In this document: in pieces, positions 46,847 to 64,000 of the stretch
How positions within the stretch are numbered: the first letter of the stretch is position 1
Layout: each line of letters starts with the position of its first letter
Source of the DNA: a virus
Taxonomy: Duplodnaviria > Heunggongvirae > Uroviricota > Caudoviricetes
Reading direction: 5' to 3' (one strand)
IMG/VR virus record: IMGVR_UViG_3300028374_000006
Length of the DNA stretch: 64,000 nt
Made by a program: the position numbers and the translations under genes
The notes under the pieces: model-generated
What the model was told of the DNA's origin: nothing
Databases searched by the model: none
The model's input: only the letters and a program-made list of their open reading frames with translations

Positions 46847-46875
46847 TTGACACGTACCTCATCCTGTGGTACGTT
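46847..46875 (+). promoter_or_regulatory. sigma70-like promoter TTGACA-17-TACGTT with TGG extended -10
   Basis: Perfect -35 hexamer, 17-nt spacer, TGn motif. Confidence 0.4.
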
Positions 46876-46977
46876 CTAAATGCCCAAGCGGGTCGCACCC
46901 GGCCCCCTGCCTCCATAGGCTTATGGTAGGGGGTGTCGCCTCATGAGGCGAACTTGGGCTCCATTACTACCCGGAGT

Positions 46978-47241: not shown

Positions 47242-47263
47242 CTACGATACGAGCAATACTACG

Positions 47264-47779: not shown

Positions 47780-47782
47780 CGT

Positions 47783-48545: not shown

Positions 48546-48756
48546 CGTACAGGGTAGCTATTATCGAAGAGGGTTACTTAGATCAACTCAAAGGGTTCCC
48601 CTCAGAAGACGCCCGAGCACTGTGGATGGAAGGTTTTCATGACGGCGTAGAGTACAGTGGTTTAGGTTCCACCTATGCCGTGGCGACTCGGAGTTCGAGA
48701 AGGTATTCAAGTATATCATGAACGATGCTAATTTTTAACTCTAAAAGGTTCCCAAA

Positions 48757-48969
48757 ATGAACAATTACCCTAAGATTAGTTTTTCACAGTTCAAAACTCT
48801 TTTGAAGCGTGCAAAGAAGAAAGAGGACGAGAGTCCTGCAAAAAAGAAGCAAGACGACCACGCAGAGAAGAACCAAGAGAAATTGGAAAAGCACCGCAAA
48901 AAGATTGACAAAGAGGTCGACGAAGATCATTCTGAAAAGGGAAAGGATCTGGTCAAAGAAAAGAAGTAA
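48757..48969 (+). CDS. small K/E-rich protein
   Basis: Low-complexity lysine/glutamate-rich 70-aa ORF. Confidence 0.35.
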   Translation: MNNYPKISFSQFKTLLKRAKKKEDESPAKKKQDDHAEKNQEKLEKHRKKIDKEVDEDHSEKGKDLVKEKK

Positions 48970-49075
48970 CCTGAATCCCGATCAGAAAAAGACCCGTTAA
49001 TCTATTTGTATTAATCTATTTGTAAAGGCCAGTCATTGGCCAGTCCTCAAGTACCTAATTTTCATGGAGAATAGA

Positions 49076-49447
49076 ATGTCACTAAAAGACCAACTGATTA
49101 AGCTTGGATACGAAAAGCCTGAACTTCGCGATAACCTCAGACCCATTCTCGCCACTCTGGATAAGGCCGCTCACAGTGGACACTCTGACTCTCTCCACAC
49201 ACCAAGTGGAACCGGTGGGTTTGCTGTGAATACTCCAGACCTAGCAGCGTTGTCTTGGTTCGCTTATGCGGTAGCGCCAGCAGGTATCCGTAATAAGGCT
49301 GAAAAGTTAGAAAGGGCCAAAGATATTACTCTTCGTGAAGTCCTTCGGCATACTGAACGTCAGACTGACGACGTTACTATCGAGTATTTAGAGCGCAATT
49401 TTGAAGAAGTACGTTCTCGATACCTAAGTGTTGAGGAAAGGCGCTAA
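49076..49447 (+). CDS. hypothetical protein
   Basis: GGAG RBS 6 nt before ATG 49076. Confidence 0.5.
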   Translation: MSLKDQLIKLGYEKPELRDNLRPILATLDKAAHSGHSDSLHTPSGTGGFAVNTPDLAALSWFAYAVAPAGIRNKAEKLERAKDITLREVLRHTERQTDDVTIEYLERNFEEVRSRYLSVEERR

Positions 49448-49507
49448 CGATAAAGACGCGCATTCTTTCGTATTTCAGCGAGATAGTGCAAGGGAAGCTA
49501 GTAGCAT

Positions 49508-49536
49508 TTGACGGTGACTAGTCACTCTGGTATAAT
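49508..49536 (+). promoter_or_regulatory. consensus sigma70 promoter TTGACG-17-TATAAT upstream of tRNA-Val; the spacer holds the 12-bp palindrome GTGACTAGTCAC
   Basis: Exact -10 consensus, 17-nt spacer, and a perfect palindrome at 49514..49525. Confidence 0.7.
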
Positions 49537-49578
49537 GGGTTGGGAACATGATACGTACCGGTCGTGTTTCTTACGCAC

Positions 49579-49650
49579 GGGACCGTAGCTCAGGGGGAGA
49601 GCACTGCCTTGACATGGCAGGGGTCGATGGTTCGAATCCATCCGGTCCCA
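49579..49650 (+). tRNA. tRNA-Val (anticodon GAC)
   Basis: Acceptor GGGACCG/CGGUCCC, anticodon loop UUGACAU, T-arm GATGGTTCGAATCCATC. Confidence 0.85.
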
Positions 49651-49674
49651 TTAATAATTAGGGAGATAAGGGGT

Positions 49675-49875
49675 ATGGCCGAAGATAAGGCTGGCGATAA
49701 GGAAAAGGTCGACAAGGCACTTGAACGTGCTGTTTCCGCGCTCTATTTCAGGGACAACGCCGATTACGGCAGTTACCTGTGGGAGATTGTGGAGGTTCTT
49801 GATCCCGAACTGTGTGACCTTCTGGAAGAGGATGGTGACGCAGCGTATGAACAGGCTCAAGAGCGGGTCAAATAA
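49675..49875 (+). CDS. hypothetical small acidic protein
   Basis: GGGAGATAAGGGG RBS + ATG 49675; the upstream extension overlaps the tRNA. Confidence 0.45.
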   Translation: MAEDKAGDKEKVDKALERAVSALYFRDNADYGSYLWEIVEVLDPELCDLLEEDGDAAYEQAQERVK

Positions 49876-49907
49876 CTACTAATTTACCTACGACTACGAG
49901 CTTACCT

Positions 49908-50729
49908 ATGGGTATCCGCATCAACAGACGGATGGGGTACGCCCTTACCGATTTCGAGTATGATACGGATGCGTGGGAAGCCACCGATTCCCGTATCAAT
50001 CTCGAGCTTTTAAACGGTGACGGCGGTGAGGATCTTTACGAACTCAAGAACGAGTTCGTTGATTGGGCACTGAGTTACCCGTACAAAGCAAAAGAGATGT
50101 TGGTGGAAGAGATTGGGGTAGAAACCCATCTTGGGTCTATAGCACAGGGAGCGTTTGAACGCCTTGTTGAAAAGCAGGGTATCAAGCGCTTTTCTTTTCA
50201 CACCCCCCTCACCCACCGGCCCGAGTTTGGCAATCCCGGAGTGTTGCTGTTTCAGCCTTTGACTTTCACAGACTGGACGCGGCACGACGACACGATTGAC
50301 CACTACGACCATGCTCACCGGTACGACGGACCCACAACAACGCTCCTTGACATGAACGCTGAACTGCATCAATGCGGTATCTATCCGTACAGTGCGCTTA
50401 TGTTACGGCACCCGGACGCTGAGACTCACGAAGAGTTTCTCAAGCCCCGTGAAGAATACACGGATGAGGCATGGGAAAAGGAACAAAAGAACCGTTTCGG
50501 TATTCGGCAGGGTAGGCTCCACGGGCGCGAATTCAATATGATGGTGGGGCATTTTGATGAGCACCAAGCTCCACTGGTTGAAAACGAGGCGTTCCTCACG
50601 CATTTGTTAGAGGACTGGAACAGCCAGATACCGCCAGAGATCCTTTTGTTTGCTCATTACAGCAAGATTTTCACTGATTTCAATACGGTGTATCGGTTAA
50701 GACCGGTGCTCTATACCTATTGGGCCTGA
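49908..50729 (+). CDS. hypothetical protein
   Basis: 273-aa ORF. Confidence 0.5.
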   Translation: MGIRINRRMGYALTDFEYDTDAWEATDSRINLELLNGDGGEDLYELKNEFVDWALSYPYKAKEMLVEEIGVETHLGSIAQGAFERLVEKQGIKRFSFHTPLTHRPEFGNPGVLLFQPLTFTDWTRHDDTIDHYDHAHRYDGPTTTLLDMNAELHQCGIYPYSALMLRHPDAETHEEFLKPREEYTDEAWEKEQKNRFGIRQGRLHGREFNMMVGHFDEHQAPLVENEAFLTHLLEDWNSQIPPEILLFAHYSKIFTDFNTVYRLRPVLYTYWA

Positions 50730-50730
50730 T

Positions 50731-51015
50731 ATGTCCGACCCGAACCAACCCGGCAATCTTAGCGAAATCAACCCCCGAGAAAAGGCGCTGTACCAATCGG
50801 TTGAGTTGCTTGCCAAGGCTGCACAAGTCGCTGAGAAAAGCTATTTGCGGGAAGAATGTCGCCTTCAGATACTGGAATTACTGGAACCTCGCACCTCTTG
50901 TGAGGAGTCAGTACGTATGTCCTTGCGTGTTCATATCTCCCACATGGAGCTTACTGACGCGAAAGGTGGTGAACTCCACGAGCTTCTGAAAGCGGCCCGT
51001 GAGGTTTTGGTATGA
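50731..51015 (+). CDS. hypothetical protein (tandem paralog A)
   Basis: 'VELLAKAAQVAEKSY...ILELLEPR' resembles the next ORF. Confidence 0.5.
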   Translation: MSDPNQPGNLSEINPREKALYQSVELLAKAAQVAEKSYLREECRLQILELLEPRTSCEESVRMSLRVHISHMELTDAKGGELHELLKAAREVLV

Positions 51016-51272
51016 CGGACGACCGGATATTCAAGGCGGTCGAATTGCTTGCTGCTGCAACGGTCAATGAACCTAAAAGCTACAAGCGAAGAGGGTACCG
51101 GATCACGATGTTAGACTTGCTCGAACCTCGCGGGTCCACCAAAGTTCCCAGCTTACAGTTGCGTAGCTTAGTGGCGTATTTGAAGGTCAATATGGGCGAA
51201 GACGACCCGGACTATATACTCATGAAACAAGTCCAAGACGTACTGGAAGGTAAAGATGGCTCCAACACTTGA
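51012..51272 (+). CDS. hypothetical protein (tandem paralog B)
   Basis: 'VELLAAATVNEPKSY...ITMLDLLEPR'. Confidence 0.5.
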   Translation: MTDDRIFKAVELLAAATVNEPKSYKRRGYRITMLDLLEPRGSTKVPSLQLRSLVAYLKVNMGEDDPDYILMKQVQDVLEGKDGSNT

Positions 51273-51804
51273 CAAAATCGTTGTGATCGACGTAGAATCT
51301 ACTTGCTGGAAAGGTAGCGTACCGCCAGATCAAGTGTCCGAGATCATTGAGATAGGCGTGTGTACCTTGGACCCTTACCTTCGGAAGATCGAGGGTAAGC
51401 AAAGCATCCTCGTCAAGCCGATCCAGAGCGACGTCAGCGCCTTTTGTAACGAACTCACTACCATCACACCGGAAATGGTTTCGGACGCCGGTACGCTGGC
51501 TGAGGCACTTGATAAGTTGCACGACGAGTATGATACGCCCAACCGCCTGTGGGCTTCGTGGGGCGACTATGATCGCACCATGTTCGAAAAGGAGTGTGAG
51601 CGAAAAGGGTTGGACTACCCCTTTGGGAGATCCCACCAGAACGCAAAGACCCTTTTCGGTTTGATGTACGGGTACAAGAAAGCCCCCGGAATGACGAGGG
51701 CGCTCAAGAGACTAGATTTCGAACTCGAAGGAACCCATCACAGGGGCCACGACGACGCCTATAATATCGCCCGCATCTTGCGGGAATGCTTGAAAGGACC
51801 ATGA
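51256..51804 (+). CDS. DEDDh 3'-5' exonuclease (ERI-1/DnaQ-like)
   Basis: Exo I 'IVVIDVESTCW' and Exo III 'HRGHDDAYNIARI'. Confidence 0.75.
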   Translation: MAPTLDKIVVIDVESTCWKGSVPPDQVSEIIEIGVCTLDPYLRKIEGKQSILVKPIQSDVSAFCNELTTITPEMVSDAGTLAEALDKLHDEYDTPNRLWASWGDYDRTMFEKECERKGLDYPFGRSHQNAKTLFGLMYGYKKAPGMTRALKRLDFELEGTHHRGHDDAYNIARILRECLKGP

Positions 51805-51805
51805 C

Positions 51806-52375
51806 ATGTTCGTGTTTTTAGACCTTGAAACTGGCGGTATCCCGTCGAAAGAGTATCCCCTTTCCGAGATCCCGATCTTGGAAGTGGCTATTGTCGTGAC
51901 CGGCGATGACCTTGTTGAACTGGCCCACAAGCAGGTGGTGATCAGTCAGCCAGAATACAAGCTGGAAGGGATGGGTGATTGGGCGAAGGAGCACCACACT
52001 AAAACGGGCCTGTTGGCCGCTTCCCGATCCGTCACATTGGCTCAAGGGGCAGCCGGGCTTCAGTTGACGGATTGGCTCTATTCGAATTTCCTGTATCGTC
52101 ACGGGGCCGATGGTTCCGACCTGAAGCCTCCGATGTGTGGTAACAGTATCCACTACGATCGTAAGTTCCTCGAAGAGCACATGCCGCAGTTGGCGTCACT
52201 TTTCCACTATCGGAACATTGACGTATCGACTCTCAAAGAGTTAGGCAAGGCTTGGGGTATCCCCCCATTTGAAAAGGAGGGCGGTGTAGAGCATCGTGCC
52301 CTCGATGATGTTCGCCATTCGATCGACGAATTGGCGCATTACCGACAGTATTTCAACGTAGGAGATAGCAAATGA
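51806..52375 (+). CDS. orn: oligoribonuclease
   Basis: 'FVFLDLETGG', 'CGNSIHYDRKFLEEHMPQLASLFHYRNIDVSTLKELGKAWG', 'HRALDDVRHSIDELAHYR' closely follow Orn conserved blocks. Confidence 0.85.
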   Translation: MFVFLDLETGGIPSKEYPLSEIPILEVAIVVTGDDLVELAHKQVVISQPEYKLEGMGDWAKEHHTKTGLLAASRSVTLAQGAAGLQLTDWLYSNFLYRHGADGSDLKPPMCGNSIHYDRKFLEEHMPQLASLFHYRNIDVSTLKELGKAWGIPPFEKEGGVEHRALDDVRHSIDELAHYRQYFNVGDSK

Positions 52376-52500
52376 TTTATATCGTGATAGCAATGGTAGC
52401 AGCTTTTCTTCTGGCCTGTGGTTTGGTAGCGTATATACGCAACAGCCAGACCACTTTCGAAATCAAGGAAGACGACAATGACAGTAGCCGAACTGATTGA
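52372..52500 (+). CDS. tiny single-TM protein (42 aa)
   Basis: MIYIVIAMVAAFLLACGLVAYI...; ATGA overlap with the orn stop. Not in the ORF track (under 60 aa). Confidence 0.35.
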   Translation: MIYIVIAMVAAFLLACGLVAYIRNSQTTFEIKEDDNDSSRTD

Positions 52501-52630
52501 AGTGTTGCAGGGACTCGACCCGGACCGAAAGGTGATTTTGCAAAAGGACGCGGAAGGTAACGGGTTTTCCCCATTCGGAGACTGGTACGAGGCATTCGAC
52601 GAGTTGCACGCAGAGAGGTTTTACGCATGA
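52478..52630 (+). CDS. small hypothetical protein (50 aa)
   Basis: Stop overlaps the XRE start (ATGA). Confidence 0.3.
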   Translation: MTVAELIEVLQGLDPDRKVILQKDAEGNGFSPFGDWYEAFDELHAERFYA

Positions 52631-52953
52631 ACTTCGCCCAGATGGTGCGACAAAACAGGACCGACCTCAACATCGGCGTCCGGGAGCTTGCCCGCAGGGC
52701 GGATTGCTCGCCCACGATGGTCGCTCACATGGAGTCCGGGGTGTCGATGCCCGGATACGAGCTGACCGTGCGACTGGCCGAGGAACTCGACCTGCCGGTG
52801 GACCGCCTGTTGATCGAGACCGGCTTCGTCCCCAGGGACGCGCGGCCCCGGACGGCATTTGAAGCGGAGCTGATGCGCCGGGTTCGCAAGTTGTCGCGCG
52901 CCGACCAGGAGCGGCTGCTGAAATCGGGCGCGCTCGGAAAAGGAGAGGCATGA
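52627..52953 (+). CDS. XRE-family (Cro/C1-type) HTH transcriptional regulator
   Basis: 'LNIGVRELARRADCSPTMVAHMESG' HTH_3-like. Very GC-rich compared with the flanking sequence. Confidence 0.7.
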   Translation: MNFAQMVRQNRTDLNIGVRELARRADCSPTMVAHMESGVSMPGYELTVRLAEELDLPVDRLLIETGFVPRDARPRTAFEAELMRRVRKLSRADQERLLKSGALGKGEA

Positions 52954-53135
52954 TTGACGATCGGAGATTTTTCACCTGGATGGACCACGGAGGCAGCGTG
53001 AACGCACCGGCTGAAGATAACGAAAGGCAGAAGCAACGGGCGACCGGACGTCGCTACCTCGACATGGACGAATACTGGGCGTGGAAGGCCGCGCGCGAAG
53101 GCGATAATCAACTGACGCAAGCAGCTGCAGAATGA
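52950..53135 (+). CDS. small hypothetical protein (61 aa)
   Basis: ATGA overlap with the XRE gene. Confidence 0.4.
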   Translation: MIDDRRFFTWMDHGGSVNAPAEDNERQKQRATGRRYLDMDEYWAWKAAREGDNQLTQAAAE

Positions 53136-53216
53136 CGACGCCAACATGAGTGAGCACTGAGACTCGAAGCCGAAAGCCACCGCCTCTAACGTCTGATCCA
53201 ATCAAGGAACTGAGTT

Positions 53217-56200
53217 ATGCTTAGCCTCGATCAATTCAAGAGCCTCGTCGTCAAGACTGCTGATTTTTCACAGGAAACGCCTTCAAAGCCAACCGGCCGC
53301 TCTTCAGCTTTTGGTCGCGGGGCAAATGAGCGGCTGGAACCAAGGCAGCCGACAAAGAAAGCGCCGTTCATTTTACAACTTCTGAAAGAGGCGAATTTCG
53401 GTAGCAGAGCACAGAAATTCCCAAAGCCGGACGAGGTATTTGGAGGGCGTGACGCCTCAGCTTTTCATTCGAATACCGAAGAGCTGCGGGACTATCTGCC
53501 CGAGCGAGTCGCCACATTCCGCTCCGAGCACCATGACACGCTCATCCTCGAGCTCGAGAACACAGCCACGAACTTGCTCGAAACTTCGTTATTTAAGCCG
53601 CTGCAATCAGAAAGCCGTCTTGAAGACGCGCTCACACGGGTTGCTCAGGCATTTTTGCGCGGTTACGAAAAGGCACACAACAGCAACCCATCGGTCGGCG
53701 CCGCGCAGGAAGACACCCTATGCGTCGTGGCGGTCCGCGATGACCGAAAGAGTAAGAAGGAGGAGGCACCTTATCTGGTCTGTTTCGCTACTAAGTGGCA
53801 TGACAAATACAGTGGCGAAAGATCCCTCGTTCACTTTTTTCTGCGTCAGCAGTGCGTCGAGTGGGAACCGCGACTTCGCGATACCCATCTGACGCAGATC
53901 TATGAAGGTTACTTCAGCAAGCTGAACAGCCCTGAGTGGCAGAACGCTTTCATCACCAGTGAAGAATGGAAAGCTGCGAATTGCGTACTCGAAGCCTTCG
54001 ACGAAAACCGAGGGGAAGATGTAGTTCGGGGCCATATGAAAGAGCTGCTCGAACAGGTCGCGCGCAATTTCAAGCTCGACGCTGATGAAAGTGGCGACCG
54101 CCTACACTTTACGAGAACGCGTGATCATGCCATCGGTTTGGATCCAGACAAAAAACTTGAGAGTCAAAAGGCCGCATTTGAGGCGACTGTTGTCCGGGAT
54201 CTCAAGGAGCATTTGCTTGGATATATCATCTACTGTGTCGACTCGACAGATGAGGCAGAGGCTTTGCGTACCTCACTCTCTCAAAACTGCTTCGAGAACG
54301 TTTTGGTACTAGCACCAGATGAGGACGATGATTCCCTTCGCTTTGAAGTTTGGCAGGCAAACAGGGGACTCAAGGACAAACTCGTCCAGGCGGGAGCACA
54401 GGAGAGCCTCGCTGCACGGCTTATCAGCACATTGGCTCGCTTTTTCGTTGTCGGTCAATCCGATGTCATTGATGCCAACGGGCTTGCCACGCAACTCGCC
54501 GCGCGCGCGAAGCACTTGCGGCAGTCCGTTCAACTCGCTTTGCGACGAGAAGCTGGTGACGGTCCGCTCAGCAAGCTTTATGCGTCCTACAAGACCAACC
54601 TCGTTCACTCGTTGAGTGAAAAGGACTTCTCCGACTCCTATGCCCAGACAGTTACTTACGCTCTGTTAGCCGCTCGATGGCTCTCCCGCCATTCCGATCG
54701 ACGCTTTCGCCTCGCTGATGCCCAAGAGTACCTTCCAATCACGAGCCCGTTTCTGTCGAGTCTCGCCACCAAGCTGCTCAATATGGATCGCTCGCCACGA
54801 GTAAGGTGGTTACTACAGGACATCACGAGCTTGCTAGAGCGGATAGATGTCGAAGCGGTTTTCGAGTCTGAACGAAATAATGACCTCATTAACTCCGATC
54901 CAATCATCCACTTCTACGAGCCGTTCTTGGATGCTTACGACAAGAGTATCCGAGAGGAACGCGGGGTCTACTACACTCCCGATGAAGTTGTCGCAGCCAT
55001 GGTGAACCTGACTGACGACCTGGTAAAGACGCGCTTCGAACTCCCGCTCGGCCTCGCCGACGACACCAGGTGGAAAGACTACGCGAATCGACACGGAATG
55101 GAGATTCCCAAAGGAATCTCACCGAATGATTTCGTCGTCCAGATCCTCGACCCGGCCACAGGCACCGGCACGTTTTTAAAGCAGGTGGTAACGCTGATTT
55201 TCGAACGCATGATGGACCACTGGCGAGACAAGGGATTGGACAACGGTCCACGCCAGGCGGCATGGGAAAGCTACGTGCGCGATTCGCTACTGCCTCGCCT
55301 TCACGGCTTCGAAATCATTATGGCGCCGTACGTAATCTGCCATCTCTGCTTACAGTTAGCACTTGAAGAGACAGGCTTTAGCTTCGAGTCAGGGGGCAGA
55401 TTAAAGGTGCTGCTCACGAATACCTTAGAGACATCTACACCTGCACAGACAGACCTCACCTTAAGCGAAGAACTCGCAGCGGAAACTGCGGAAGCGGCCA
55501 CTACCAAGGAGAGCCCTGGCATCTCCGTGGTTATTGGTAATCCCCCCTACTCGAAGATTTCCAGCAACCTCAATGAGGAAGCCGTCGAATACATCAAGCC
55601 GTTCAGATATCTCAACGAGCAGAAAATCGTTGAAAGAGGCGCACTCGCGTTCGAGATGACGCTTCAAGATGATTACGTCAAGTTCTTCGGCTTTCTTCTT
55701 GCGAAGTTAAGCGCAAACCCGATTGCCGTTGGGAGTTACATTACAAATTTCCGATTCCTCGACTCGAACTACCTGCGAGGGATGAGGGAAAGCCTTCGCA
55801 GCAACTTCGATAGTATTCACATTCTCAATCTCGGAGGGCATCGTACTGAGCAAGAGTTCCTTCCAATGCCAGATGAGAATGTTTTTAAGATTGAACAAGG
55901 GAACGCTATCTCATTGCTAGCTCGAGACGTGACTAGCGCTAAGAAGTCGCCTCAATATTACAGAGTTTGGGGCGAACGCCGGGAAAAGCTTGACTGGCTT
56001 AATGACATATCACTTAACGATGTCGACTGGAGAAAGGTGACCACTCCACAGGGTCGAAACGACTTCGGCGTATCATCATCCGCAGCAGAAGAGTTTGCGC
56101 GCTGGCCCGCGCTTGATGAGGTTTTCCGCAAACAAAGTGGCGCGATCATTACCTCACGCGACAATCTCACGATTGATTTTTCGAAGGAGGTGCTTCTCAA

Positions 56201-57278
56201 CAAAGTGCGTAGATTTGCCGAAAGTCCAGAAGGGAGCGCTAAACTACAAGAAGAAATTGGCTTCTCGATCAAAAAGAGTTGGGATGCTGAAAAGTGTAAG
56301 GAGCAACTTAAGGAGGACGGCATCGACAAAAGACACATTCGCCCAATCCTCTACCGACCTTTTGATCTTCGCAAAGTCTTCTACTTTCAATCGCTCATCG
56401 ACACTCCCTCACGGCCGATTTGCAATCACATTCATGGCGGACCTAACCTTGTTCTCCTCACTCCGAAGACCAAGACCACTACCGAATTTTCGCACGTCTT
56501 TATCAGCCAACACGCAGTCGAAAAGAAATCTGCATCCAACGATAGAGCCACCACAATGTTTCCATTGTGGCTCTATCCTGAGCAAACAGCAAACCAGCCA
56601 GACGTGCTAAAGGGGCTCCGTTCTTCAAACTTCAGTCAATCCTTTATTGGTAACTTCACTAAATTTAGCTCCTCGTCCGAACGTGGAACGCTGGATGAAC
56701 GGGTGTTTACCTATATATATGCAGTCTTGCATGCTCCTGGATATCGACAACGTTATGGAAAGCAACTCAAAAACCAATTCCCGCGCATTCCGTACCCGTC
56801 AAACGCCAATCTCTTCAACGAACTGGCGCCTCTTGGAAATGAGATTCAAGCCATTCACACCGGGGTGACTTCGAGCAAGCCGCACAAGGCGCCAGACTGC
56901 AGCGTGGAATTCCACAACGGTGGCAGCACAAAGGTTGCGAAAGGCTACCCAAAGTACAAAGAAGAAGAAAACGCGATTTTCATCAACAGCAAATCCTCAT
57001 TCAATCAAGTCACCTTAGAAGTATGGGAATACGTACTCGGTGGCTATCCTGCGTGCAAAAAGTGGCTAAAGGACAGAAAGGGACGGAGTCTTTCTGCGAA
57101 AGAGACAGACACTTACATTGCCGTAGTTTGTGCAATTGAGGAAACAATCCGCCTATCTGCTGCAATTGAAGAGGTTGTTGTACGCTACGGTGGATGGCCA
57201 GACGCGTTTGCAGCAGCGGGGGAGGACGCCGACGTGGCTGTGCCCGAGGTGGTTGAGGAACGCGAGTTGACGACGTGA
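53217..57278 (+). CDS. 1353-aa fused gamma-class N6-adenine DNA methyltransferase protein (type IIG/IIL restriction-modification or BREX PglX-like)
   Basis: Motif I 'ILDPATGTGTFL' followed by motif IV 'VVIGNPPYSK' in the central region. About 600-aa N-terminal and 500-aa C-terminal regions without helicase Walker motifs. Confidence 0.7.
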   Translation: MLSLDQFKSLVVKTADFSQETPSKPTGRSSAFGRGANERLEPRQPTKKAPFILQLLKEANFGSRAQKFPKPDEVFGGRDASAFHSNTEELRDYLPERVATFRSEHHDTLILELENTATNLLETSLFKPLQSESRLEDALTRVAQAFLRGYEKAHNSNPSVGAAQEDTLCVVAVRDDRKSKKEEAPYLVCFATKWHDKYSGERSLVHFFLRQQCVEWEPRLRDTHLTQIYEGYFSKLNSPEWQNAFITSEEWKAANCVLEAFDENRGEDVVRGHMKELLEQVARNFKLDADESGDRLHFTRTRDHAIGLDPDKKLESQKAAFEATVVRDLKEHLLGYIIYCVDSTDEAEALRTSLSQNCFENVLVLAPDEDDDSLRFEVWQANRGLKDKLVQAGAQESLAARLISTLARFFVVGQSDVIDANGLATQLAARAKHLRQSVQLALRREAGDGPLSKLYASYKTNLVHSLSEKDFSDSYAQTVTYALLAARWLSRHSDRRFRLADAQEYLPITSPFLSSLATKLLNMDRSPRVRWLLQDITSLLERIDVEAVFESERNNDLINSDPIIHFYEPFLDAYDKSIREERGVYYTPDEVVAAMVNLTDDLVKTRFELPLGLADDTRWKDYANRHGMEIPKGISPNDFVVQILDPATGTGTFLKQVVTLIFERMMDHWRDKGLDNGPRQAAWESYVRDSLLPRLHGFEIIMAPYVICHLCLQLALEETGFSFESGGRLKVLLTNTLETSTPAQTDLTLSEELAAETAEAATTKESPGISVVIGNPPYSKISSNLNEEAVEYIKPFRYLNEQKIVERGALAFEMTLQDDYVKFFGFLLAKLSANPIAVGSYITNFRFLDSNYLRGMRESLRSNFDSIHILNLGGHRTEQEFLPMPDENVFKIEQGNAISLLARDVTSAKKSPQYYRVWGERREKLDWLNDISLNDVDWRKVTTPQGRNDFGVSSSAAEEFARWPALDEVFRKQSGAIITSRDNLTIDFSKEVLLNKVRRFAESPEGSAKLQEEIGFSIKKSWDAEKCKEQLKEDGIDKRHIRPILYRPFDLRKVFYFQSLIDTPSRPICNHIHGGPNLVLLTPKTKTTTEFSHVFISQHAVEKKSASNDRATTMFPLWLYPEQTANQPDVLKGLRSSNFSQSFIGNFTKFSSSSERGTLDERVFTYIYAVLHAPGYRQRYGKQLKNQFPRIPYPSNANLFNELAPLGNEIQAIHTGVTSSKPHKAPDCSVEFHNGGSTKVAKGYPKYKEEENAIFINSKSSFNQVTLEVWEYVLGGYPACKKWLKDRKGRSLSAKETDTYIAVVCAIEETIRLSAAIEEVVVRYGGWPDAFAAAGEDADVAVPEVVEERELTT

Positions 57279-57367
57279 AGCCATCCTTCGGAAAAACTTC
57301 GCGTCACCTCGGGGGGTATGACATCGCGAAGTGACTTCGTGACCACAAAATGCCTACCGTATAAACT

Positions 57368-58339
57368 ATGAAACCTGAAGGCAACTCGCCCAAAGTCAAG
57401 TTCGACAGCGACGTCATCAATCCCTTTGAACAGATCTGGGCCGACTTCATCGACTCCGAAGGCGTCCATTCGGAATTCAGCCGGGCAGACTATGGCTTCA
57501 TTCAGCACGAGTTCGGTCCCCAACTCCGTGACCATGTGCTCGGCGGGATCGACGGCATAGGTGATCCCTACCTGCCACAACGAACCTCGAAGTCCGACGC
57601 GCGGAGTACCCTTGTCCGTATCGAGAAGAATATCGCCCTCGAGGCGTTTGGGCTTGTGACGGAGAAAGACCACGAGAGCCCACCGCAGTCCCACGGCAAA
57701 CTCGCGCTCGATTTCGCGCCCAGATACGACAGACACCATGTCGTCCTGTACTTGAAGTTCAAGCTACCTGGAGGCGGACAGAAGCGCTTCCAAAAGGAAG
57801 GCATACTCTCCTCGAAGGCGGAGACTCTTGTTGCTGAGTTCTTTCCCGACGCCACGTATCAACCTGCGGTGAGATTCGAAGGGCTCAGTCTATCCTTTGT
57901 GTTCGAGCTGACCAAGATACCGTTCGCCTCTCTTAGAGATACGTCGCCCGAGCAGTGGCGGACTGTGCTGCAAAATCTGCGAGAACGCTGGCTCGAAGCG
58001 GAGAGCCAGATTTCTCGCCTGTACCAATCGGAAGTATTCGAGGACTTCCTGCTCGAGCTCGGCTACGGGAAGACCGAACCACCTAATGTCGAGGAGTTCG
58101 TCGAACCCATTGATGTCACGGATCGCGGCGTATGGGTCATGCGGCCTGGCGCCGGCGGTCGTCTGTGGGAGAGATGGTGTGGCGAAGAAGTTATTAGCAT
58201 GGGCTATGGCGATGCCTTCTCGGACGACCTGGAGCCGCTCGCCTCCAAGGACGAAGTCAAGAACTCCGTAACAGTGTACTGGTTCAGCGTGAAATGGAGT
58301 TTCCGCTCCTCGGTTGATGTGACTCAGCTTACCTGCTGA
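57368..58339 (+). CDS. hypothetical 323-aa protein, 3' end abutting/overlapping the IS remnant
   Basis: ORF downstream of the giant MTase; the last 16 nt overlap the inverted transposase fragment. Confidence 0.5.
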   Translation: MKPEGNSPKVKFDSDVINPFEQIWADFIDSEGVHSEFSRADYGFIQHEFGPQLRDHVLGGIDGIGDPYLPQRTSKSDARSTLVRIEKNIALEAFGLVTEKDHESPPQSHGKLALDFAPRYDRHHVVLYLKFKLPGGGQKRFQKEGILSSKAETLVAEFFPDATYQPAVRFEGLSLSFVFELTKIPFASLRDTSPEQWRTVLQNLRERWLEAESQISRLYQSEVFEDFLLELGYGKTEPPNVEEFVEPIDVTDRGVWVMRPGAGGRLWERWCGEEVISMGYGDAFSDDLEPLASKDEVKNSVTVYWFSVKWSFRSSVDVTQLTC

Positions 58340-58650
58340 GCACGGATTGCCTCTCTTGCCTTCTGACGAGCTTCCGCTCGCTTTTTCCTCGCCGCTTCGA
58401 TCTTCCGATCACGCTCGGCGAAAATCTCTTTCTCCCGGCCAGCGAGTTTGTCCATCGGGGTGATGTAGCCGATGGCGCTGTGCAGGCGTCGCATATTGTA
58501 GTGCTCGATGTACTTTGCCACGGTGCACCTGGCGTCGTCGAGGCTAAGCGGCGGCTGCGGCCTCAGGCACTCGTCTTTGATGGTGCGAAAGAAACGCTTC
58601 GATTGCGGCGCTAGGTGCGCTGAACCATTTCGGTGATTTATTTGCGGATA
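58324..58650 (-). mobile_element. IS3/IS481-family transposase C-terminal fragment (remnant; N-terminal catalytic part missing)
   Basis: 'SKRFFRTIKDECL...YIEHYNMRRLHSAIGYITPMDK' matches the integrase-core C-terminal consensus (ERFNRTLKEE...YNxxRPHSSLGYxTP). Confidence 0.7.
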
Positions 58651-58826
58651 TGACCACCAACGATGAAGTGAGCACGTTGGATAAAGCAATGCTTTCCTCA
58701 CTGGAAGGGTATATCAATTTGTATCTCCGAACCAAAGCTGATATAGTCCCGGCGACCTATCAGGTCTCCGCATAAACAGTTTCGGGGGCGGGCTACCAAT
58801 CCCCGCCCCTTTGGAAGTAGGTTACT

Positions 58827-59987
58827 ATGAGTAAATCGTGGAATGTGCTAGAGGGGGATTGTCGAGATCGCCTTCGGGAACTCCCAGATCAATCTATCCA
58901 CATGGTGTGGACTAGTCCCCCGTACTACAAGCTAAGGGACTATGGTCATGATGCTCAGATAGGTCTGGAGCCGACGCCAGATGAGTTCGTCCAGACGATG
59001 GTTACGGTCATGCGCGAGGTTCATCGCGTCCTCCGGGATGACGGTACGTTATGGCTTAATATCGGCGATTCTTATGGTGGTTCTATAGTTGGCGGTAGGG
59101 CGAAAGATCTGCAAGGCTTGGCATGGCGTGTGGCTCTAGCCCTACAAGAAGATGGCTGGTATTTGCGCAACGATATCATCTGGGCCAAGGGGGTAAGTAA
59201 TCAACAGGGTTTTGTCGAAGCCGCCGCCTCCTCAATGCTTAGGCAAGGTATCTCACCTGAAAAAGTTGATTCTATTGTATCCGAACTGGAACTATCGGTG
59301 GGAAATGCGAAGCCAGAGAGTGTTACGGATAGATTCACGCAGGCACACGAATATTTGTTTTTGCTGTCGAAAAAACCGCGTTATTTTTTCGACCACCTAG
59401 CCTCCAGAGAGGTGGGGGTTACAGGTAGTCCCCGCAATCGAAGAACGGTGTGGCTCGTACCTACGAAACCTTTTGATGGGGCACACTTCGCGGCGGCCCC
59501 AGAAGACTTAGTTGCACCGTGTATAGAGGCCGGAACATCTCAGAGGGGCTGTTGTGCTGCTTGCGGGGCACCCTATACACGTCTAGTTAAAGTTGAGGGG
59601 GAAGAAGGTACCCCCTTAGAATCGAGGTCTTCTTCGCATATTCGCCAACCCGGTAACACCCCAATTAAAGATCACCCATTTGGGTATGCTAGGGATCGTA
59701 AAATGTTAGGGTGGGAACCCACATGCTTTTGCTCTACCGATAAAGCTCCTGTGCCCTGCACGGTCTTAGATCCTTTTGCCGGGGCAGGGACAACTTTGCT
59801 GATGGCAGATCAATTGAACCGTCAATCTATTGGTATCGAACTTAATCCCGATTATGTTGAGATCATAGAAAAACGGATTTTGCATTATCGTAATGAATTA
59901 CCCCCATTTGATGAGAGATATCTTCCTGTAGAATCGGACAGTGAATTGCCTTCAGAAATTCCTTTCGAGCAGTTGCTTAATTTTTGA
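58827..59987 (+). CDS. beta-class DNA methyltransferase (N4-cytosine/N6-adenine, ParB-MTase type), apparently orphan
   Basis: Motif IV 'WTSPPYY' precedes motif I 'VLDPFAGAGTTL'. Confidence 0.8.
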   Translation: MSKSWNVLEGDCRDRLRELPDQSIHMVWTSPPYYKLRDYGHDAQIGLEPTPDEFVQTMVTVMREVHRVLRDDGTLWLNIGDSYGGSIVGGRAKDLQGLAWRVALALQEDGWYLRNDIIWAKGVSNQQGFVEAAASSMLRQGISPEKVDSIVSELELSVGNAKPESVTDRFTQAHEYLFLLSKKPRYFFDHLASREVGVTGSPRNRRTVWLVPTKPFDGAHFAAAPEDLVAPCIEAGTSQRGCCAACGAPYTRLVKVEGEEGTPLESRSSSHIRQPGNTPIKDHPFGYARDRKMLGWEPTCFCSTDKAPVPCTVLDPFAGAGTTLLMADQLNRQSIGIELNPDYVEIIEKRILHYRNELPPFDERYLPVESDSELPSEIPFEQLLNF

Positions 59988-60064
59988 CAGATCCCGGTGG
60001 CTAGGGTATAGGTTAGTGAAGCAAGGGACGATACCTAATACCTACGAGCTTAACGGAGATCACG

Positions 60065-60298
60065 ATGACCTACCAACACGATTCGGAAGGGCAAGAGTTT
60101 TTGGGCGAGTTCACCAATAACGAGGGCACCTTCGACCTTTATGTTAGCCGGAAGTTCAAGGAAGTGATCGCCCGTTTTGGCGATAGCCCGTCTGACTACA
60201 GCGCTGCCCCGCTGGACACAGCGTTTATGTACCCTGACGGTGGGCAGTTAGGTGGAAGCCCGCTTCGGGAAGCTGCAGAGCGGACCCTGCGTCAGTAA
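60065..60298 (+). CDS. hypothetical protein
   Basis: ORF followed by a terminator. Confidence 0.45.
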   Translation: MTYQHDSEGQEFLGEFTNNEGTFDLYVSRKFKEVIARFGDSPSDYSAAPLDTAFMYPDGGQLGGSPLREAAERTLRQ

Positions 60299-60327
60299 GC
60301 CCGGCCCATACGCACTACCGACTAGAG

Positions 60328-60358
60328 GCCCCTTTTCGAAGGGGCTTTTAGGTTTCTT
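60328..60358 (+). terminator. rho-independent terminator (GCCCCTT-TTCG-AAGGGGC + TTTTAGGTTTCTT)
   Basis: 7-bp stem, tetraloop, T-run. Confidence 0.7.
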
Positions 60359-60368
60359 GAAAAAGCCC

Positions 60369-60396
60369 TTGACATGTCGGAATAAATAGCTATCAT
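60369..60396 (+). promoter_or_regulatory. sigma70-like promoter TTGACA-16-TATCAT
   Basis: Near-consensus hexamers directly after the terminator; drives the mini-ORF / tRNA-like / 60626 gene region. Confidence 0.55.
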
Positions 60397-60532
60397 CCCC
60401 TTGTTGAACAGATACATCCCCGACGATGGGGACACCTAACGGAGCGAACCATGAAACGTCTGAAACGGAAACACAAACCTCGCTCCTGACCCGCCCTCCC
60501 GAAGCCGGTCAGGAGATGAGAATCTCTTGGAC

Positions 60533-60602
60533 CGGAAGCTAATGTTGGTGAAGCAGCAGGCTCTTAACCTGAAGGTCGTGGGTTCGAACCCCACCATTCC
60601 GA
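60533..60602 (+). other. degenerate tRNA-like element (anticodon-arm CUU-like, canonical T-arm, acceptor 3' strand, but broken 5' acceptor/D-arm)
   Basis: 'GCAGG CUCUUAA CCUGA AGGUC GTGGGTTCGAACCCCAC CAUUCCG A' is present; a 5' strand able to pair with CAUUCCG is absent. It shares the 18-nt T-arm with tRNA-Ser(GCU). Confidence 0.45.
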
Positions 60603-60625
60603 CTGAACACCAACAGGAGGAGAGT

Positions 60626-60886
60626 GTGGAAAACGTAGCGTCGTACGGAGACAAGATCATCGTCGAGCCGATCGACCGATCCGACGAGCAGTATCCCGAG
60701 GTAATCACCACCTCGGGCAGGGTCGGAAGGGTGGTCTGGAGTTCGAACATCAACTGCCCTAAAAGTGCGGTGGTCATTTACGAGAACTGCCTCAACAGGA
60801 TCCACGACACGAAAACGAACAAGGTCCGCGAGGCCGTGTCCGCCGACGACGTGCATTTCGTGTTCCAGAAACCGGCGCGGTTCTGA
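60626..60886 (+). CDS. hypothetical 86-aa protein (small beta-rich; GroES-like resemblance is weak)
   Basis: AGGAGG RBS 5 nt before GTG 60626. The ORF-track N-terminus (60527) translates the tRNA-like element ('VVGSNP') and is rejected. Confidence 0.45.
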   Translation: MENVASYGDKIIVEPIDRSDEQYPEVITTSGRVGRVVWSSNINCPKSAVVIYENCLNRIHDTKTNKVREAVSADDVHFVFQKPARF

Positions 60887-61024
60887 TGTTTCGCCGGTTT
60901 CTAAAGATGTTCCGGCGTCCGTGCGATTGTCCCGTTGACGTGCATGTACGCTAGCTCCATGCTAGGGGCGCTCAAACCTGCAGATTTAACACGATTGCAG
61001 CCATTCTTAAGTTCGGAGAGGACG

Positions 61025-62959
61025 ATGGATACCGACTCGACTGCCGATGCAGTTGCACAAGCCCCTGAACGGGTCGAGAGGACGAGCACCAACCCACTCG
61101 ACGACCAAGTCGAGAAGCTGAAGACCCTCTTTCCTGAGTGCGTCTCAGAGGGTCGTGTCGACTTCGAGCGGCTTAAGGCAGTCTTGGGCGACGAGCTGGA
61201 GGGAGAGGACGCCTATCGGCTGACGTGGGCTGGGAAGAAGGACGCTTTTCAACAGGTCCAGTCGCCAAGCCGAGGTACTCTCGCCGTCGATGACGACGAG
61301 TCGCTCTACTTCGACCACACCGACCATATTTTCATCGAAGGTGAAAATCTCGAAGTCCTGAAGACGCTCTACAAGTCGTATTACGGGCGCGTGAAGATGA
61401 CTTACATCGATCCGCCGTACAATACCGGCGGCGACTTCATCTACTCTGATGACTTCTCCCAGTCCCTCGATCAATATCTCGCCGCTACCAGGCAGGCTGA
61501 CGGCGAGGGTAACGTCCTGTCGAGCAATCCCGAGACAAGCGGGCGGTTTCACTCCTCATGGCTGTCGATGATGTATCCTCGGCTGTTCCTAGCTCGCCAG
61601 TTGCTACGCGACGACGGTGTGATTTTCGTATCCATCGACGACAACGAAGTCCACAACCTTCGCCTGCTGATGAACGAGGTGTTCGGCGAGGAAAACTTCG
61701 TTACCAACGTGGTTTGGCACAAGGTTTTCGCGTCCAAGGCGTCTGCTCGTTACTTTTCAGAAAGTCATGACCACATCCTCGTTTACGCCAAAGACAAGGA
61801 AAACTGGGAGCGCAATCTTCTGCCGCGAACCGAGGAGCAGAAGTCCGAGTACACCAACCCCGACAATGATCCTCGTGGACCATGGCGCTCGGTTTCGTTG
61901 TCCGCACGGAATGAATACTCCGACGGCTTGTGGGGTACGACGACGCCCAGCGGGCGGGTGATTGAGGGGCCTCCTATTGGCAGTTATTGGAAGGTCTCGA
62001 AAGAGAAATTTGAAGAACTATGTGATGACAACAGGATCTACTGGGGCAGCGAGGGGGACGGGATCCCCAGAAGAAAGTTTTTTCTATCGGAGGTACAGGA
62101 CGGCATAGTTCCCAACACCGTTTGGCGCTACGAGGACGTTGGACACACTCAGAAGGCAAAAAAAGAATTGTTGAAGTGGGTTGACTTCGAAAACACCGCG
62201 AACGTGTTAAACACAGTGAAACCTCCGCGACTAATCCGTCGAATGCTTGAAATTGGCACGGACCCCGACACTGAGGATATTGTACTCGATTTCTTTGCCG
62301 GCAGTGCAGCAACCGGCCAGGCGGTCGTCGAGCACAATGCCGAGGATGGTGGCAATCGGCGTTTTGTTTGTGTCCAGTTTCCTGAGCCTCTGCCTAAACC
62401 TGAGCCGAAGCTGAAGACCATCGCCGATATTGCTCGCGTACGGCTTCGGAACCTCCGTGACTCACTTACTGGCGATGACCACCAGCTGACCCTTGAAGGT
62501 TCGAAGGACGTCGATGCTGGCTTCAAAGCGCTTCGATTGGCCGACTCGAATCTAAGGCAGTGGCAACCACCCGAGGAGGACGACCCAGACGCTCTGATCG
62601 AGCAGATGGCGATCTTCGACGACGGACTAAAGGACGATGTGCGGCACAAGGACGTGCTGTACGAGCTGATCCTACGTGAAGGCTTTTCGCTGAACTCCGA
62701 GGTCGAAGAAGTCAAAACAAAGAGCCAGATGACCTACAAGGTCACTGACTCCAAGGAAGGCGTGGCCGAGCAGGATGAAGATGCGGCGGCACCGAGGGCA
62801 GATCGTTCGTTTTGCGTCTGCCTCGACGAAGAGATCGGCTTCGAGATCTTGGACGATCTGCAGGTGGACACCGAGCAGGTCTTCATCTGCCGTGACAGCG
62901 CGATCGACGATGCGCTGAAGGTCAATCTATCGCTCGAATGCATCCTGAAGGTGATTTGA
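61025..62959 (+). CDS. mod: type III restriction-modification methyltransferase (Mod), beta-class N6-adenine
   Basis: 'IFIEGENLEVLKTL', motif IV 'YIDPPYNTG', motif I 'VLDFFAGSAATGQA'. GGAGAGG RBS before ATG 61025. Confidence 0.8.
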   Translation: MDTDSTADAVAQAPERVERTSTNPLDDQVEKLKTLFPECVSEGRVDFERLKAVLGDELEGEDAYRLTWAGKKDAFQQVQSPSRGTLAVDDDESLYFDHTDHIFIEGENLEVLKTLYKSYYGRVKMTYIDPPYNTGGDFIYSDDFSQSLDQYLAATRQADGEGNVLSSNPETSGRFHSSWLSMMYPRLFLARQLLRDDGVIFVSIDDNEVHNLRLLMNEVFGEENFVTNVVWHKVFASKASARYFSESHDHILVYAKDKENWERNLLPRTEEQKSEYTNPDNDPRGPWRSVSLSARNEYSDGLWGTTTPSGRVIEGPPIGSYWKVSKEKFEELCDDNRIYWGSEGDGIPRRKFFLSEVQDGIVPNTVWRYEDVGHTQKAKKELLKWVDFENTANVLNTVKPPRLIRRMLEIGTDPDTEDIVLDFFAGSAATGQAVVEHNAEDGGNRRFVCVQFPEPLPKPEPKLKTIADIARVRLRNLRDSLTGDDHQLTLEGSKDVDAGFKALRLADSNLRQWQPPEEDDPDALIEQMAIFDDGLKDDVRHKDVLYELILREGFSLNSEVEEVKTKSQMTYKVTDSKEGVAEQDEDAAAPRADRSFCVCLDEEIGFEILDDLQVDTEQVFICRDSAIDDALKVNLSLECILKVI

Positions 62960-62961
62960 TC

Positions 62962-64000
62962 ATGAAGTTCCGCTTCGATCCGAACCTCGACTTCCAGACA
63001 CGAGCCATTGAATCGGTCGTGCAGCTCTTTGACGGTGCTACGCGGCTGGAGACGGGCTTTGAGCTAATCGCCGAAGACGGTGTCATCTCGAACGACCTGA
63101 CGCTGACTGAAGGCGATCTGCTGGAGAATCTGCGCGCTGTACAAGCCGACGAGGAGCTTCAGGGCGGCGCTGCCATCCCAGCCGGTAAGAGCCTCGACAG
63201 CCTCGACTTCTCAATCGAGATGGAGACAGGTACGGGCAAGACCTACGTCTACCTCCGCACCGCCTTCGAATTGCACAAAAAGCACGGCTTCCGAAAGTTC
63301 ATCATCGTGGTGCCGTCGGTCGCGATTCGAAAGGGTGTGATCAAGACCTTCGAGATGACGAAAGACCACTTCGGCCAGCTATACGACCACCTGCCTTACC
63401 GCTTCTATGAGTACGACTCGGCTAACCTATCGAGGGTGCGCCAGTTCACGTCGAGCAACGATGTCGAGTTCATGATCATGACGCTGGCGTCGTTCGACAA
63501 AGAGATCAACGTCTTTAACCGATCTCAGGATCGGATGATGGGGCGAAGTCCGCTCGAACTTGTGCAGAATACGCGTCCTATCCTGATCCTCGACGAGCCG
63601 CAGAATATGGAGGGGGCCAAGGGTAAGAAGGCTCTCGAAAGCCTCAACCCGCTGTTCAAGCTGCGGTACTCGGCGACGCACCGGAAGCTCTACAACCTCG
63701 TCTACCGCTTCACCCCTGTCGACGCCTACCGCCAAGGATTCGTCAAAAAGATCGAGGTCGCCTCTGTCGTCCAGGACCACGATGCCAACCGCGCCTATGT
63801 CGAGTGTAAGAGCGTCAAAGCCAAGAAGACGGTCGTCAGCGCAAAGTTGAAGGTCTACGTGCGGGGCAAGTCGGGGCCGGAGCCGAAGTACCGCACCGTG
63901 CAAGCTGGCGATGACTTGGAGGAGGTCACCGGCTTGTCCGTCTACGAAGGCTGGGTGGTCGAGTCTGTAGACGCTGGATACGGCGAGGTGTCCTTCCGAA
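62962..64000 (+). CDS. res: type III restriction enzyme Res subunit (partial, continues beyond window)
   Basis: Helicase motif I 'METGTGKT', motif II 'LILDEPQN'. Starts 3 nt after the mod stop; open at the window end. Confidence 0.75.
   Translation, partial: MKFRFDPNLDFQTRAIESVVQLFDGATRLETGFELIAEDGVISNDLTLTEGDLLENLRAVQADEELQGGAAIPAGKSLDSLDFSIEMETGTGKTYVYLRTAFELHKKHGFRKFIIVVPSVAIRKGVIKTFEMTKDHFGQLYDHLPYRFYEYDSANLSRVRQFTSSNDVEFMIMTLASFDKEINVFNRSQDRMMGRSPLELVQNTRPILILDEPQNMEGAKGKKALESLNPLFKLRYSATHRKLYNLVYRFTPVDAYRQGFVKKIEVASVVQDHDANRAYVECKSVKAKKTVVSAKLKVYVRGKSGPEPKYRTVQAGDDLEEVTGLSVYEGWVVESVDAGYGEVSFR

Follow-up and report, generated by a model that had tools for sequence, protein, structure and literature searches.

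A variable arm with exchangeable restriction-modification cassettes in a tRNA-rich, putative jumbo phage

The IMG/VR virus record IMGVR_UViG_3300028374_000006 was analyzed over a stretch of 64,000 nucleotides, hereafter the window, and its right end was found to be a cargo hotspot, in which three or more modules are exchangeable, the composition is foreign and the breakpoints are exact. The region from about 52.6 kb to the contig end is probably a hypervariable cargo arm of a jumbo phage, built of acquired restriction-modification (RM) modules that would now mainly serve self-methylation, their restriction side having apparently eroded. An earlier annotation based on the letters of the window (the sequence-only reading) had taken the region as mosaic cargo for defence or epigenetic protection, acquired horizontally. 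This view is supported by sister contigs with a backbone identity of 99.7-100%, which have alternative DNA both at 53,138-58,593 and past 60,595.

The window corresponds to positions 164,462-228,461 of a metagenomic contig of 230,823 bp (ENA ERZ27315384 k141_231862, found by exact-protein look-up), which extends just 2.36 kb past the window end. The contigs compared include L002 (JGI 3300028372), L108 (ENA ERZ27315599), L107 (JGI 3300011187), L008 (JGI 3300028377), L003 (Logan SRR5216657) and L101 (ENA ERZ27315599 k141_109884). Positions are those of the window unless a contig is named. The modules of the arm and their main genes are the following:

52627-53135, plus strand: module A0, an XRE-type helix-turn-helix (HTH) protein of 108 aa, HTH108 (52627-52953; HTH_19/HTH_3, PADLOC HTH_VI), and orf61 (52950-53135)
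53138-58593: cassette A, 5,456 bp (alternative 3.95-kb cassette in sisters; tetranucleotide signature), with the next three genes
53217-57278, plus strand: Type IIG/IIL-like single-chain protein (methyltransferase) of 1,353 aa (Type_ISP_C, Eco57I, N6_Mtase; PADLOC REase_MTase_IIG)
57368-58339, plus strand: orf323, no assigned function, with a 16-nt overlap between its 3' end and the stop of the transposase fragment
58324-58593, minus strand: fragment of an IS3-family transposase, C-terminal ~90 codons (rve_3 7.4e-15)
58594-60595: module B, 2.0 kb, common to all variants at 99.75-100%
58594-58772, plus strand: remnant of an 831-aa gene, its last 59 codons and stop (tblastn 92% over 64 aa; base-by-base comparison of the junction)
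58827-59987, plus strand: beta-class N6/N4 DNA methyltransferase of 386 aa with the motif SPPY (N6_N4_Mtase 3.4e-37, phrog_67, PADLOC MTase_II 2.9e-84)
60529-60602, plus strand: chimeric tRNA-Lys(CTT) (Rfam tRNA 38.7 bits, cut-off 29)
60596-64000, and in the parent contig to at least 65,571 (window scale): cassette C (sister comparison; tetranucleotide signature), with the foreign 3' end of a tRNA, orf86, and type III mod and res
61025-62959, plus strand: Type III Mod of 644 aa, DPPY before FxGxG (PADLOC MTase_III 1.1e-179, Pfam N6_N4_Mtase)
62962-64000, ending at 65,487 on the window scale, plus strand: Type III Res of 841 codons, the first 346 within the window (PADLOC REase_III 6.5e-238; Pfam ResIII, RE_endonuc)

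The breakpoints are exact because one phage backbone was sampled many times. At single-base resolution they lie two bases past the stop codon of orf61 (the left edge of cassette A), directly against the insertion sequence (IS) fragment, and in the T-loop of the tRNA gene (60,595/60,596). The list includes all the elements that the sequence-only reading had named in this part: the giant methyltransferase, the IS remnant, the orphan beta-class methyltransferase, the tRNA-like scar and the type III mod/res pair running off the window.

Replacement of an older cassette by cassette A

Contig L108 matches the window over 46,807-53,137 at 99.75%, including both RNase_T genes of the left flank, the mini-ORFs, the HTH gene and orf61. 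Past 53,137 it continues with an unrelated stretch of 3.95 kb that has genes of 113, 94, 33, 252 and 831 aa, and the match with the window resumes at 58,594. Contig L111 is arranged in the same way, and the backbone identity of the two contigs up to 53,137 is 99.75-99.9%. Also L002 has the same alternative cassette, at 98.9% and with the 831-aa gene intact. The comparison with related genomes, which had been recommended together with the sequence-only reading, thus bore out an exchanged cassette, beginning at 53,138.

When cassette A took the place of its older predecessor, the 831-aa gene was reduced to a 3' stump. This stump directly abuts the truncated IS3 fragment, whose 5' side breaks off precisely at the junction of the cassette. 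That there is an IS remnant was confirmed by the rve_3 match and by distant IS3-family matches (transposases at 48% identity or less). The element is incomplete: just the C-terminal ~90 codons are present and no inverted repeats were found with it, and a repeat search in the surroundings of cassette A found neither target-site duplications nor inverted repeats. The replacement may have been made by an IS-associated illegitimate event. Several contigs start or end at the junctions, L005 and L006 beginning exactly at 58,594 and L109, L110 and L003 ending or starting within about 80 nt of 53,137, a pattern expected when variants co-occur.

The 831-aa protein of the alternative cassette (L002 2105-4600, L108 10521-12974) has a sub-threshold match to GHKL ATPases (HATPase_c_3, E 0.0019). 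With this match as its support, it is speculative that the 386-aa methyltransferase once had this protein as its restriction partner. GHKL proteins that vary in their C-terminal domains are reported as conflict systems of jumbo phages (PMC7824862). For orf323, no match was found in Pfam, PHROGs, PADLOC, NCBIfam or the PDB sequences.

Module B and the tRNA-Lys junction

Compared with L002, module B has only three internal mismatches, all beside the tRNA junction. The 386-aa methyltransferase is an orphan also in its surroundings, having no adjoining nuclease gene and, as its former upstream neighbour, the destroyed 831-aa gene. The remaining features of the module are:

60065-60298, plus strand: orf77, no assigned function and no family matches; 100% identical in L002
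60322-60351, plus strand: strong intrinsic terminator with a 13-bp stem (sequence prediction)
60369-60396, plus strand: sigma-70-like promoter TTGACA-16-TATCAT (sequence prediction)

The predicted promoter would drive the tRNA-Lys genes. Between it and the tRNA-Lys gene there is a leader of about 130 nt (60397-60528), which is 100% conserved in all variants and has no Rfam match.

In contigs L002 and L004 the match with the window (99.75-99.86%) ends at 60,595. At that point they have an intact tRNA-Lys(CTT) with the acceptor stem GGACCGG/CCGGTCC, followed by tRNA-Lys(TTT). In the window type the tRNA-Lys(CTT) is without its own 3' end, TTCCCACCCGGTCC: the 5' three-quarters of the gene are phage sequence, and from the T-loop on it has the foreign 3' end ACCCCACCATTCCGA. 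The Rfam fit requires a 4-nt deletion and a shifted acceptor, the 7-bp acceptor stem being out of register, and ARAGORN made no call at 60529-60602. Because in-register pairing of the foreign 3' end with the 5' acceptor strand is impossible, the gene is regarded as a recombination scar and is probably dead. No other tRNA-Lys genes were found in the window. The sister tRNA-Lys(CTT) (L002 6354-6428) has C at position 33, which is a U in nearly all tRNAs, and the broken copy of the window has the canonical T (60562).

Nucleotide composition

Tetranucleotide signatures were scored against leave-one-out references. The 3-kb windows of the backbone gave 0.204 +/- 0.048 (maximum 0.372), and every 3-kb window from 53,001 onward gave 0.32-0.49, 9 of the 11 exceeding the backbone maximum. 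The distances of cassettes A and C were 0.427 and 0.407, compared with 0.108 +/- 0.020 (maximum 0.155) for backbone windows of 5.4 kb. Since the signature shifts at about 53.1 kb, the compositional break of the sequence-only reading is real and by this measure strong, but its place is 53,137/53,138, neither 52,372 nor 52.6 kb. The horizontal acquisition of the cargo is supported both by this coincidence of signature change and cassette edge and by the closest relative of res, which is in a bacterial tRNA-Asn island. The most atypical stretch of the backbone is 3001-6000 (0.372); HNH genes are present in the same region of contig L104.

The gene averages of the backbone are 0.5145 +/- 0.022 for GC and 0.578 +/- 0.055 for GC at third codon positions (GC3). 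The values of the arm are:

giant methyltransferase: GC 0.515, GC3 0.571, indistinguishable from the backbone
HTH108: GC3 0.835, above the backbone
orf86: GC3 0.816, above the backbone
res: GC3 0.764, above the backbone
386-aa methyltransferase: GC3 0.444, below the backbone

GC by itself sets apart just the HTH gene, orf86 and res. The idea that each block has its own GC content therefore held for these genes and failed for the giant methyltransferase, which is at backbone GC. Synonymous codon usage, the other measure proposed with that idea, showed no outlier gene in the region (z -1.6 to +1.4) and does not separate cargo from backbone.

The Type IIG-like protein

The 1,353-aa protein of cassette A (Type_ISP_C 1e-72; PADLOC REase_MTase_IIG 6.7e-162) consists of an N-terminal region with a restriction-endonuclease-like fold, a helical linker, a gamma-class N6-adenine methyltransferase with the motifs DPATGTGTF ... 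NPPY, alignable to DrdV, and a Type ISP-like target-recognition domain. It thus has methyltransferase and target recognition in a single polypeptide, as do Type IIG/IIL enzymes. DrdV (PDB 7LO5), BpuSI (3S1S) and the MmeI family also combine a gamma-class N6-adenine methyltransferase with a C-terminal target-recognition domain in one chain, but their N-terminal part is ~150-250 aa and that of the window protein ~400 aa. An exhaustive representative search placed the window protein in a separate family of ~43 clusters. With the Type ISP enzymes LlaGI and LlaBIII it shares the methyltransferase and the Type_ISP_C target-recognition domain (matches to PDB 5FFJ and 4XQK), whereas no helicase-like ATPase domain was detected in it, and for this reason an assignment as a Type ISP enzyme was ruled out.

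The protein was compared with 28 full-length relatives at the conserved columns of each domain. Within residues 1-400 it deviates at 26 of the 94 columns (the median of the others being 7.5) and in the linker at 10 of 56, while its methyltransferase core deviates at only 3 of 92 and its recognition domain at 3 of 28. The N-terminal domain has no conserved Lys and no canonical D...(D/E)xK with the conserved Lys. This nuclease-like domain looks degenerate and the methyltransferase core well conserved. A word-index homology search with the N-terminal part found nothing.

Related giant methyltransferases were seen on other contigs. The tRNA-rich contig L101, from the same project, has two paralogues in tandem (1,397 and 1,346 aa; L101 945-10041) with a tRNA-Leu(TAA) between them, followed by 4.6 kb with five tRNAs and no called genes. 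In L102/L103 (464-13140), a relative with 42% identity is situated between a 1,499-aa SNF2-like helicase and McrB/McrC genes, and this stretch looks like a composite defence island.

The type III genes and the extent of cassette C

The Mod protein is full length in relation to the profile (positions 4-606 of 621), and its translation includes IDPPYNTG and DFFAGSAATG. The mod stop (62957-62959) and the res ATG (62962) are 2 nt apart, with mod upstream on the same strand. The pair had been recognized correctly, but res is not fully intact: a TAA has replaced Lys codon 842, for which contig L019 has AAA, and this nonsense codon cuts off a conserved tail of 28 aa. The same TAA is present in the independent assembly of L009. 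Past it, the reading frame continues through 27 further codons to the ancestral stop, and the lost segment K-I-x-C-A-x-x-H-F...V-D-Y is found in 30 of 30 aligned homologues, down to ~48% identity. All three methyltransferase activities (the gamma-class IIG enzyme, the beta-class 386-aa enzyme and Mod) look intact, and since the restriction halves look eroded, cutting would be reduced or lost.

The other features of cassette C are:

60626-60886, plus strand: orf86, no assigned function, GTG start; it accompanies mod-res
60932-61037, plus strand: the mod leader with the first 13 nt of mod; second copy at the end of the parent contig

A GroES-like assignment of orf86, made from sequence, was dropped as it had no Pfam, PADLOC or PDB support. 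The second copy of the mod leader, 760 bp after res (L001 17422-17536), comprises ~105 nt with one mismatch, and the repeat matches 60923-61037 at 97.4% over 115 nt. It could stem from type III units in tandem, from another mod allele or from a break in the assembly. Contigs L008 (JGI) and L010 (Logan) both stop at one base within res (64392 on the window scale), which hints at a further variant breakpoint inside the gene. The right end of cassette C and the contig start were not recovered in exact-pattern scans of JGI metagenomes or in an IMG/VR scan, and a homology search with a downstream protein of L002 found no match on the 230-kb contig.

Relatives of res

The closest relative of res, P0001 on contig L019, is 97% identical in amino acids and 89.5% in nucleotides over 3.5 kb; the next relatives have 66% identity. 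L019 1-7561 is a bacterial-type island between a full tRNA-Asn and a repeat of the tRNA-Asn 3' end, in which a P4-type integrase and mod are both truncated, res is full length (869 aa) and merR/merT/merA are present. The mer region gave no useful taxon. The RM unit of L019 decays from the mod side, opposite to the phage copy.

Recombination at the conserved T-arm of the tRNA gene may have captured cassette C from such a tRNA-targeting bacterial island or from another phage, and the price of the capture would have been the loss of tRNA-Lys(CTT). Also tRNA islands with a P4-type integrase, such as that of L019, have a tRNA 3' fragment at the cassette edge. The phage copy differs from them in that it has no integrase, the tRNA was not regenerated and no displaced 3' repeat was found in the available sequence. 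The window and the 2.4 kb of contig that follow it have neither an integrase nor direct repeats of the tRNA 3' end, and the right end of the cassette lies past them.

Left flank of the arm

On the left the arm is bordered by conserved backbone, with the following genes:

51256-51804 and 51806-52375, plus strand: two tandem RNase_T-family exonuclease genes (Pfam RNase_T 1.8e-17 and 2.7e-11)
52372-52630, plus strand: mini-ORFs of 42 aa (hydrophobic) and 50 aa (sequence read)

In place of the single "orn" claimed earlier there are thus two tandem genes, and an identical RNase_T protein is present on 13 contigs. The ATGA overlaps at 52372, 52627 and 52950 link RNase_T to the 42-aa mini-ORF, and the 50-aa mini-ORF to HTH108 and further to orf61, so that both genes of module A0 start in such overlaps. 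The 50-aa mini-ORF has a weak phrog_5861 match and 82% identity in L002. With GC 0.657 the HTH gene stands at the extreme of the window, and in 500-bp windows the GC peak of 0.634 is situated at it, compared with a maximum of 0.584 in 519 backbone windows. As described in the sequence-only reading, overlapping mini-ORFs run into a very GC-rich XRE segment.

That reading had also included the HTH gene in the methyltransferase island, which was not upheld. Since the HTH/orf61 block precedes the cassette of the window and the alternative cassette of L108 alike, A0 is not part of cassette A, and because it is absent from the more diverged L002, it represents a separate, older variable module. That the HTH protein is a controller (C) protein serving the IIG gene alone was rejected on the same arrangement in L108. 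The proposed in-phase stitching of the island to the phage genes is true of the ATGA chain, which ends at orf61, but not of the RM genes: there is a gap of 81 nt ahead of the IIG gene and the other gaps are 77-490 nt. The RM genes have the same orientation as the phage genes, without translational coupling.

A further indel polymorphism was seen at 46807-46810, where L108 has 1.74 kb more (L108 815-2558). Four nucleotides are common at the joint, which is ~285 nt downstream of a tRNA-Leu(TAG), and also the match of L110 begins at 46807.

Alternative explanations

The contig could be a chimeric assembly of phage DNA with host or island DNA, as would be in line with the location of the region at a contig end where the contig stops in a repeat, with the composition shift at 53.1 kb, and with the several assemblies that break at the junctions. 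The breaks, however, are such as co-occurring variants produce, the backbone resumes between the cassettes as module B, and the same joins are 100% identical in L107 (42,806-61,167), L008 (51,025-64,392) and L003 (53,058-60,030), that is, across assemblers and samples (ENA ERZ27315384, JGI 3300011187, JGI 3300028377, Logan SRR5216657). As the junctions recur in independent assemblies from other samples, mis-assembly is unlikely, and the phage-host chimera, which the sequence-only reading had named among the findings that would refute its view, appears extremely improbable. It is also very unlikely that the replicon is a plasmid or a chromosomal region rich in tRNA and defence genes. The viral case rests on genes other than capsid, terminase and tail, and Lon protease, topoisomerase and RNase T are functions of cellular type. 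On the other hand, Lon protease of this family is known from phage records too, the topoisomerase II large subunit is of T4 type (phrog_543, 2e-162), and one gene has a Pfam Anti-Pycsar_Apyc1/Lactamase_B match. The genes are tightly packed (coding 92%) and nearly all on one strand (81 of the 97 greedily chosen ORFs on the plus strand), the 64 kb include 12 tRNA genes, and IMG/VR contig L011 is a distant, syntenic relative. Megablast with 52-64 kb gave no match among 72,556 plasmids, and none among 50,697 phage records. The replicon looks like a tRNA-rich uncultivated jumbo phage (>200 kb class), as judged from the contig of 230,823 bp and the nearby viral hallmarks; its viral nature is well supported, not proven.

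Both RM units might instead be fully active, so that the phage methylates its own DNA and degrades host DNA or excludes co-infecting phages, as P1 does with EcoP1I. The compact mod-res operon with its strong profile matches would fit this, as would the retained ResIII helicase match and ETKG motif of Res and its low dN/dS. We consider it somewhat unlikely, given that the tail lost to the nonsense codon is, in its first part, conserved in all aligned homologues, that the IIG N-terminal domain lacks any conserved Lys and deviates as described above, and that a dN/dS from two sequences cannot be placed on the phage branch. A quite possible, though not the favoured, origin of cassette C is homologous recombination with another phage that had its own tRNA-Lys(CTT), with the crossover in the conserved T-arm and no bacterial island involved. 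The missing integrase and att repeats point in this direction; the anticodon-loop difference (T/C) at 60,562 could be a mark of the donor, L101 has related giant methyltransferases between tRNA genes, and Res belongs to a PHROG family (phrog_11902, 1.5e-201). Against it, the sole close relative found is in the bacterial tRNA-Asn island with the mer operon, and the foreign 3' acceptor strand (CATTCCG) misfits the phage 5' strand, so that either the donor tRNA was a different one or the join was illegitimate.

Some observations weigh against the preferred reading of the region as a cargo arm of acquired modules with eroded restriction. Because module B is 2 kb identical in all variants, short-read assemblers could mis-pair the left and right cassettes. 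Contig L004 is the sole one with the IS fragment of cassette A present and the type III genes of cassette C absent, and thereby the only evidence of independent assortment, and it could itself be a chimera across module B. The contig stops in a repeat ahead of the right end of cassette C, L009 diverges 20 nt past the res stop, and an integrase is absent from the window. Reference genomes (GTDB representatives) include no close relative of res (48% identity or less) and give no donor or host. Res retains its helicase motifs, and its ETKG (ExK) is situated 17 residues upstream of the stop; dN/dS in relation to the island copy is 0.042, and the truncated protein may still be able to cut. In the IIG N-terminal domain, lineage divergence and not decay could explain the deviation, the nearest relative being just 47% identical. 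The statements on function are throughout inferred from sequence.

Function and known systems

According to the preferred reading, the arm between the conserved RNase_T genes and the tRNA-Lys cluster would consist of the independently exchanged modules A0, A and C with the conserved module B. The three methyltransferases most likely methylate the phage DNA against host restriction at several motifs, by which the phage would escape restriction of the same specificities.

Mod-then-res operons are known from phage P1, whose type III system EcoP1I has a beta-class Mod and a Res with an SF2 helicase and a C-terminal PD-(D/E)xK nuclease. The window has a similar phage-borne operon with a beta-class Mod, but its replicon is large, tRNA-rich and uncultivated, with no lysogeny genes seen. 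Also its Res is without the conserved last 28 aa, the population is polymorphic for its cassette, and the join with phage DNA is inside a tRNA gene of the phage. Phages and satellites (P2/P4) are reported to have hotspots of antiviral systems (Rousset and colleagues, 2022). Like these and the hyperplastic accessory regions of T4-like phages, the arm has alternative, unrelated cargo at a fixed position in near-identical genomes. It differs in having RM-derived cargo in a phage tRNA array, with breakpoints in a tRNA gene and at an IS fragment, and in belonging to a jumbo phage known from metagenomes only. Orphan phage methyltransferases, reportedly derived from RM systems (Murphy and colleagues, 2013), are likewise phage-borne and thought to shield phage DNA from host restriction. 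In the window the restriction partners are still recognisable although apparently decaying, and the locus may therefore show intermediate stages. Several methyltransferases are often carried by jumbo phages (PMC7824862, section 3.4.7).

Variable defence and anti-defence hotspots of phage genomes are already well known, and the present case shows one in unusual detail. Particular to it are the breakpoint in a tRNA gene, the IS fragment at the other junction, the possible stages of reduction from RM systems to methyltransferases, and the recurrence of IIG-like genes among tRNAs in L101. A tentative and rather unlikely extension is that phage tRNA arrays are landing pads for DNA that targets bacterial tRNA genes, where RM systems of islands are captured whole and then stripped to methyltransferases. 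The stages would then stand side by side: a freshly captured type III unit with its Res just struck by a nonsense codon, a IIG enzyme whose N-terminal domain is decaying, and an orphan beta-class methyltransferase beside the stump of its former neighbour. Phage methyltransferases and RM systems shape the range of infectable hosts and the competition between phages. If true, the reading of the locus would offer a concrete, testable route from captured RM systems to orphan phage methyltransferases, and it suggests that phage tRNA genes serve also as recombination sites for cargo.

Other genes of the replicon

Candidate counter-defence genes are present elsewhere in the window, at 193-1302, 2742-3542 and 12784-13842 (minus strand). 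The set comprises a DHH/DHHA1 phosphoesterase, a metallo-beta-lactamase-fold protein with Anti-Pycsar_Apyc1 Pfam matches and a minus-strand nucleotidyltransferase (phrog_388). A patatin gene is situated immediately upstream of the window start. The distant relative L011 has a tRNA with the anticodon CTA, of the amber-suppressor type (L011 16285-16358), which ARAGORN labels as Pyl.

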